A stretch of 3,892 nt of DNA from Escherichia coli. GTDB lineage: Bacteria; Pseudomonadota; Gammaproteobacteria; Enterobacterales; Enterobacteriaceae. Shown here piece by piece: positions 663-842 of this stretch; position 1 is the first letter of the stretch; each line of letters begins with the position of its first letter. The position numbers and the translations under genes are program-made. Where the stretch lies: assembly GCF_003334815.1 (NCBI RefSeq), contig NZ_QOWO01000079.1. One strand, 5' to 3'. A model generated the notes under the pieces. It ran no database searches. It saw only the letters and a program-made list of their open reading frames with translations, and had not been told where the DNA came from.

Positions 663-764
663 GACAAAGTCTCCATTTCTGGAATTTAAATCAAACGGAA
701 AGGTTAAAAATTTATTTGCAGGCGATAAGAGCTAACCAGAGGAATTAGCCGTGTGATAAAAGGA

Positions 765-792
765 TTGTTGCAGATACGAAAGTCGTTAGAAT
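765..792 (+). promoter_or_regulatory. Candidate sigma70 promoter of the hok/mok (pndA/pndC) mRNA
   Basis: -35-like TTGTTG (765-770), 16-bp spacer, -10 TAGAAT (787-792). It sits 7-8 nt upstream of GGGCGCTTGAGG (799-810), which resembles the conserved 5' end of hok-family mRNAs. Confidence 0.45.
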
Positions 793-842
793 AGCTGCGG
801 GCGCTTGAGGCTGTATGCCGAAAGCGTTTTGTGGACGGTATA

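Follow-up and report, generated by a model that had tools for sequence, protein, structure and literature searches.

Does the short AT-rich spacer between the conjugal transfer gene trbA and the toxin locus pnd of IncI1 plasmids act as a control region shared by both genes, or do two independent modules merely meet there? The question is raised by a stretch of 3,892 nucleotides from Escherichia coli (contig NZ_QOWO01000079.1 of assembly GCF_003334815.1; the window in the following), for which the initial annotation proposed an AT-rich divergent control region between a membrane-protein gene and a toxin locus. The membrane-protein gene is trbA, encoding the IncI1 conjugal transfer protein TrbA, and the toxin locus corresponds to pnd, the type I toxin-antitoxin system of the hok/sok type in IncI plasmids. 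The coordinates of the spacer were confirmed: it comprises the 136 bp from window position 663, the base after the trbA start codon (ATG, 662–660), to position 798, the base before the pnd transcript. Its AT-richness was borne out as well, with a GC content of 37.5% compared to about 50% on both flanks (trbA, 138–662: 50.7%; pnd transcript, 799–1180: 50.0%). Only 25 of 3757 sliding windows of 136 nt are equally AT-rich, and all of these lie in this spacer or in the spacer near 1367–1500. Intergenic DNA of enterobacterial plasmids is normally AT-rich, and the composition of the spacer is genuine and unremarkable. Within the spacer it is uneven, with a GC content of 30% in 663–712, 44% in 713–757 and 39% in 758–798.

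The window is 100% identical to the IncI1 plasmid ColIb-P9 (NC_002122.1, 46864–48210) over positions 138–1484, and PLSDB contains about 750 plasmids with a coverage of 80% or more for this segment. In ColIb-P9 the annotated order is trbC-trbB-trbA (minus strand), a Hok/Gef gene (plus strand) and a conserved 83-aa hypothetical gene. Both sequences share the position of the locus beside trbA in the transfer region, the toxin, the leader RNA, the antisense gene and the promoter layout, and the spacer itself does not differ. The region is known biology that was described previously, and 663–798 is likely to be an ordinary trbA-pnd intergenic junction of IncI1 plasmids of the ColIb-P9/R64 type, made up of two independent modules and filler. 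The features of the locus are collected in Table 1.

Table 1. Features at the trbA-pnd junction, given in window coordinates.
Feature	Position	Strand	Basis or remark
IS3-family insertion sequence, 3' end (ends ...GGGGCGGTTCA)	1..137	+	truncates trbA at 137/138
trbA 5' fragment, codons 1–175 of 402	138..662	-	100% identical to ColIb-P9 trbA
trbA-linked proximal upstream segment, 30% GC	663..712	-	sole part of the spacer beside trbA in all variants examined
trbA Shine-Dalgarno sequence GGAG	671..674	-	read from the sequence, 8 nt ahead of the ATG
Weak hypothetical candidate trbA promoter	683..710	-	PWM 6.5 bits, no better than shuffled sequence
Junction/filler from trbA flank to pnd cassette	713..757	.	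replaced in variants; one of the most variable stretches of the spacer
pnd (hok-type) mRNA promoter module	758..798	+	PWM rank, conservation, R1 hok architecture
Predicted full-length pnd mRNA	799..1169	+	5' end GGGCGCUUGAGG pairs with 1157–1169 (fold-back end pairing)
PndB (Sok-like) antisense RNA gene, predicted	845..940	-	top sigma-70 PWM score in the window, 11.0
pndC, mok-like overlapping reading frame, 67 codons	896..1099	+	overlaps pndA
pndA, Hok/Gef-family toxin, 50 aa	954..1106	+	Pfam PF01848, E = 8.7e-12
GC-rich hairpin 3' of pndA	1116..1138	+	terminator scan

Outside the segment shared with ColIb-P9 the window differs by insertion sequences. Here, an IS3-family element truncates trbA, which has a full length of 1209 nt and is left as a 175-aa minus-strand ORF (662 to 135), and at 1485 the ColIb-P9 sequence gives way to an IS66-family element with tnpA, tnpB and a broken tnpC, located 55 bp beyond the 83-aa ORF. 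The IS66-family element (1485–3755), inserted on the upstream side of the 83-aa ORF, is ISCro1/IS679-like and starts with GTAAGCG; its tnpC is broken up into two ORFs (2588–3277 and 3258–3758), and in this region the window is 16 nt shorter than NZ_CP024481.1. A perfect inverted copy of the 137-nt IS3-family end, annotated as 'IS3 family transposase' in NZ_LT985321.1, is found at 3756–3892. The two stretches 1–137 and 3756–3892 are one and the same IS3-family end in opposite orientations, cutting trbA at codon 175 and the IS66-family tnpC. The plasmid RCS85_pI of ECOR 3 matches 138–3892 with 100% identity and carries an intact trbA. In 5,426 complete E. coli genomes the junction of the IS3-family end and trbA does not occur, and among the PLSDB matches listed none spans it; the segment bounded by the IS3-family ends may be an inversion or a composite unit, or a short-read contig ending in a repeat.

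For the IncI plasmids R483, R64 and ColIb-P9, pnd is described as a locus consisting of the pndA toxin gene, the pndC reading frame and the PndB antisense RNA, the sources being Nielsen et al. (1991) and Furuya and Komano (1996) as they are cited in PMC10286972 and bioRxiv 10.1101/2025.08.07.668861. All these parts can be recognized in the window. The product of pndA is named 'Hok/Gef family protein' in RefSeq and matches the NCBIfam model HokA with E = 9e-19, below the curated cut-off, and PndC has the same length as the protein of that name listed for pESBL (PMC4288162). The Rfam sok/hok-leader model RF01794 matches 799–956 end to end (131.7 bits compared to a gathering threshold of 59). In the minimum free energy fold of the RNA 799–1185 (z = -8.6) the 5' GGGCGC (799–804) is paired with GCGCCC (1164–1169); according to the legend of Figure 1 in PMC1635323, a paper that describes the end pairing of hok mRNA as 'blunt-ended', such end-to-end pairing keeps full-length hok-family mRNAs inert. 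On the minus strand, a putative PndB antisense gene with its own promoter and hairpin was found in silico: a -35 element TTGCCT (940–935) and a -10 element TACTAT (917–912) separated by a 17-nt spacer, a predicted start near 905 and a hairpin extending to approximately 845, the minus-strand fold of 906–830 yielding -32 kcal/mol (z = -5.5). By analogy with hok, the hairpin at 1116–1138 would serve the processed mRNA as a terminator-like 'road-block' stem. Regulation of pnd is known to be post-transcriptional, by antisense RNA and mRNA folding (PMC1635323; PMC7602700), and post-segregational killing and plasmid stabilization were reported for R483, R64 and pESBL (PMC7602700; Furuya and Komano as cited in PMC10286972). 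Toxin expression would be controlled downstream of the spacer and post-transcriptionally, by pairing of the 5' and 3' mRNA ends, slow 3' processing and the Sok-like PndB antisense RNA, with nothing in the spacer being involved. The 83-aa hypothetical ORF (WP_001291965.1, window 1178–1429, minus strand) is a constant companion of pnd in IncI1 plasmids and has no match in NCBIfam.

The initial annotation placed promoters for both genes in the interval 663–798, and for pnd this stands. A consensus promoter tool called no promoter in 500–1560. A position weight matrix (PWM) scan for sigma-70 sites yielded a -35 element TTGTTG (765–770) and a -10 element TAGAAT (787–792) separated by 16 nt, with a predicted start at 799, and this site ranks third among all sigma-70 PWM sites on both strands of the whole window. 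Its score alone is matched by 18% of composition-matched shuffles, and the case for the pnd promoter rests on several convergent lines of evidence. The -10 element stands 6–7 nt ahead of G799/G800, and the promoter is placed such that transcription would begin at the conserved GGCGCUUGAGG, an arrangement that is retained in seven aligned copies or remnants of the cassette and is comparable in R1 hok. In the same seven copies or remnants, representing four unrelated upstream contexts, the -35 element occurs as TTGTTG, TTGTGG or TTGTTA and TTAGAATAGC is invariant; the +1 region GGGCGCTTGAGGC is conserved across the aligned pnd cassettes. The comparison with hok/sok (parB) of plasmid R1 points in the same direction: the mRNA 5' end GGCGCUUGAGGC is the same, both systems contain a -35-like GA(T/G)TGTGG block, and the R1 hok mRNA 5' end GGCGCTTGAGGC, taken from the T7 primer used for in-vitro transcription (PMC1635323), aligns at window position 800. 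Both systems further share the 5'-3' end pairing, an overlapping mok-like reading frame and a toxin promoter that is weak and faces a strong antisense promoter. Unlike in R1, the pnd -10 element TAGAAT is located 4 nt nearer to the -35 block than TATGAT of R1, the toxin sequence is of the PndA type and the genomic neighbor is trbA. A start of the pnd transcript at 799/800 is predicted and is supported by the start of the Rfam model, the R1 hok 5' end, the pairing of the mRNA ends and the conservation of the hexamers. The module 758–798 would thus be a compact promoter starting at G799/G800, and weak, constitutive activity is to be expected from its likeness to hok. As the predicted start lies 1–2 nt beyond the end of the interval, the proposal of the initial annotation that start sites mapping outside of it would speak against both promoters was badly framed.

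The distribution of the spacer among other plasmids shows where its parts separate. A distant BLAST search of window positions 600–960 against PLSDB returned three classes of matches. Some are full-length; others extend from 600 to approximately 926, a gene such as finQ being inserted and a remnant of the pnd leader still standing beside trbA; the remaining ones begin at query positions 158–164 (window 757–763) and represent pnd-like cassettes of 88–90% identity in other contexts. In an IncF plasmid, pHUSEC41-1, the post-finQ copy of pESBL and pIncI1_STnovel, the similarity starts at AAAAGGATTGT (approximately 758) and the sequence to the left is unrelated, and these cassettes have conserved -10 and +1 regions and a conserved -35 in which one or two positions vary. 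Since the homology of the cassette begins at approximately 758 in unrelated plasmid contexts, the pnd promoter is self-contained. On the trbA side, the match to the window ends at 712 in plasmids carrying different inserts, placing the two homology breakpoints at 712/713 and 757/758. Among eight IncI plasmids, 4 of 50 sites are variable in 663–712, the fewest in the spacer, and 8 of 45 in 713–757, counts that rest on only eight to nine plasmids. Breakpoints and variability together divide the spacer into the trbA flank (663–712), filler (713–757) and the self-contained pnd promoter (758–798). The filler would be junction sequence remaining from the insertion of the cassette, and the adjacency of trbA and pnd looks like a by-product of cassette insertion between exc and trbA. 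An insertion at this place is implied by the title of Furuya and Komano (1996), as cited in PMC10286972.

Several rearrangements were observed at the trbA side of related plasmids. About one quarter of the sampled IncI plasmids have a degenerate pnd promoter and leader attached to trbA, reaching the equivalent of window position ~928, and finQ or another gene stands between this trbA-side remnant and a second, complete pnd. In pESBL-EA11 the remnant (locus 2207–2364) reaches 76.5 bits with the Rfam sok model. The trbA-side remnant may therefore represent an orphan gene for the PndB antitoxin, as it retains the antisense -10 element and inspection by eye showed a new -35-like TACACA 17 nt upstream. 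In pESI (locus 1181–1300) the pnd promoter and about 100 nt of the leader lie beside trbA, a hypothetical gene of 909 nt on the strand of trbA taking the place of the toxin, and in pPIMMR (locus ~1041–1250) a tandem duplication of about 100 bp includes the trbA start codon together with the adjoining ~28 nt of the spacer. Between pnd and excA, ColIb-P9 contains a bidirectional terminator-like hairpin of 35 nt, GTAAAAAAGCCGACCTCACCAGTCGGTTTTTTTAC, in three copies (locus 5446–5480, 5819–5853 and 6065–6099), and a similar hairpin precedes trbA in IncK2/Z plasmids. The pnd-excA region of related plasmids also harbors dqlB (DinQ-like) type I toxin genes and matches to Rfam AgrB.

For trbA, the placement of a promoter in the interval holds in a weaker form, in that a trbA promoter within 663–798 is plausible. 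Above-chance sigma-70 sites were found on the minus strand of the spacer neither in the PWM scan nor with the stricter consensus tool: the best site, which reaches 6.5 bits, is equaled by 78% of shuffles. The least unfavorable candidate lying wholly within the always-retained segment 663–712, with a score of 6.5 bits, consists of a -35 element TTTTTA (710–705), a 16-nt spacer and a -10 element TAAATT (688–683), with a predicted start near 676 leaving a leader of only 14 nt. This candidate is kept in the pIncI1_STnovel variant; an alternative candidate is TGGTTA/18/TAAATT (738–709). The spacer resembles the upstream region of IncI1 trbABC in that it stands immediately 5' of trbA and includes its ribosome-binding site. 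Phylogenetic footprinting of the trbA leader against IncK2/Z, O27:H7 and Citrobacter relatives showed that only the ribosome-binding site can be aligned with IncK2/Z or more distant leaders, ATGGAG being kept in the IncK2/Z trbA leaders. The IncK2/Z trbA gene is located about 150 nt past a strong hairpin and is likewise preceded by weak promoter-like sites only, pointing to weak local promoters as the usual arrangement for trbA. Weak sites also fit transfer genes that depend on plasmid-encoded activators. The segment 663–712 would then be the AT-rich 5' flank of trbA, comprising the ribosome-binding site and most likely a weak, probably activator-dependent trbABC promoter. Indirect evidence, namely transposon-insertion sequencing of pESBL and the hairpins of ColIb-P9 described below, favors no more than a promoter at some place up to a few hundred bp from trbA, and whether and where a trbA promoter exists is inferred. 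In this window, where trbA is a truncated relic, it would drive no functional gene. A small plus-strand ORF (661–735, 24 aa), the ATG of which (661–663) overlaps the trbA start codon (662–660) on the opposite strand, was rejected, being without other support.

It is rather unlikely that the spacer lacks a trbA promoter and that trbABC is transcribed on the minus strand from farther upstream, the conceivable sources being read-through from the PndB promoter (940–912), a promoter of the 83-aa ORF (1178–1429) or a long tra transcript kept going by TraB. The chance-level minus-strand scores in the spacer would be explained in this way, the strongest promoter-like site of the window aims at trbA from 243 nt upstream, and the antisense hairpin has a U-poor tail without a terminator call. 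Moreover, a stretch of about 50 kb in ColIb-P9 holds all pil, tra and trb genes in a single orientation, and the encoded regulators include a NusG-family protein. In pESI, TraB acts as a positive regulator (PMC5013300), and plasmid NusG paralogs were proposed as tra antiterminators (PMC7593976); in ColIb-P9, the regulator gene that commonly goes by the name traB carries the annotation of a NusG-family antitermination protein (locus 42439–42972). However, the pESI-type remnant stops at approximately 898 and is devoid of the antisense promoter, yet pESI conjugates (PMC5013300), and plasmids of the pIncI1_STnovel type retain nothing past 712. In pESBL, Himar transposon insertions upstream of trbA leave transfer undiminished: trbA, trbB and trbC are needed for transfer and the upstream finQ, pnd and hp25 are not (Table 2 in PMC4288162). 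Furthermore, the pnd/trbA region of ColIb-P9 is set apart from excA by four terminator-like hairpins on the minus strand, and the weak local sites past the strong hairpin of IncK2/Z speak against the need for a distant source. A search of the whole of ColIb-P9 for the RfaH-type ops element GGCGGTAGNNTG found no ops-like site beyond one match with one mismatch for each half, which is below chance expectation and leaves an ops-type recruitment of TraB unsupported. A narrower version, according to which trbABC has no conventional promoter of its own and part of its transcription is read-through from the strong, constitutive PndB antisense promoter 243 nt upstream, is very improbable; it fits the absence of an above-chance promoter in the spacer, the U-poor tail and the presence of a pnd remnant beside trbA in about one quarter of the sampled IncI plasmids. 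If true, such read-through would couple expression of the transfer operon to the antitoxin promoter of the addiction module.

Equally improbable is a genuine bidirectional control region, as suggested by the initial annotation, with shared sites or overlapping promoters through which trbA and pnd would be co-regulated or interfere with one another. In its favor, trbA and pnd are oriented divergently across an AT-rich gap of only 136 bp, and back-to-back promoters can couple through supercoiling. However, inverted repeats of at least 7 nt, and hence candidates for palindromic operators, are absent from 640–830, where the sole direct repeat is a pair of 7-mers 166 nt apart. The candidate promoter cores are at least 27–55 bp apart and do not overlap, the middle segment 713–757 is replaceable and variable, and in unrelated contexts the pnd promoter retains only about 7 bp upstream of its -35 element. 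The two halves are not inherited as one unit, each of them occurring without the other: the pnd promoter is found without the trbA half in the IncF plasmid, in pHUSEC41-1 and in the post-finQ copy, and the trbA half without the pnd half in plasmids of the pIncI1_STnovel type. Also the known regulation of pnd is post-transcriptional (PMC1635323; PMC7602700). As no shared operator was found, co-regulation or interference of the divergent promoters is unsupported. Candidate regulator sites judged by eye were rejected: a CRP half-site TGTGA (752–756) is not conserved, most plasmids having GTGCGA, and an FNR half-site ATCAA (690–694) and an IHF site are half-sites only and likewise not conserved. 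A sigma-54 -24/-12 spacing was not seen by eye in the spacer.

As a summary, the junction of two independent modules and filler is the preferred reading of the trbA-pnd spacer. IncI1 plasmids rank among the major vehicles of ESBL genes. The accessible literature was searched for a mapped start site of trbA or pnd in these plasmids and none was found, and the start site of the IncI1 trbABC promoter still appears to be unmapped there. The value of the present analysis is mainly a correct annotation, which places the pnd mRNA promoter and start at 765–800 and suggests that the spacer is a junction of modules as opposed to a regulatory hub.
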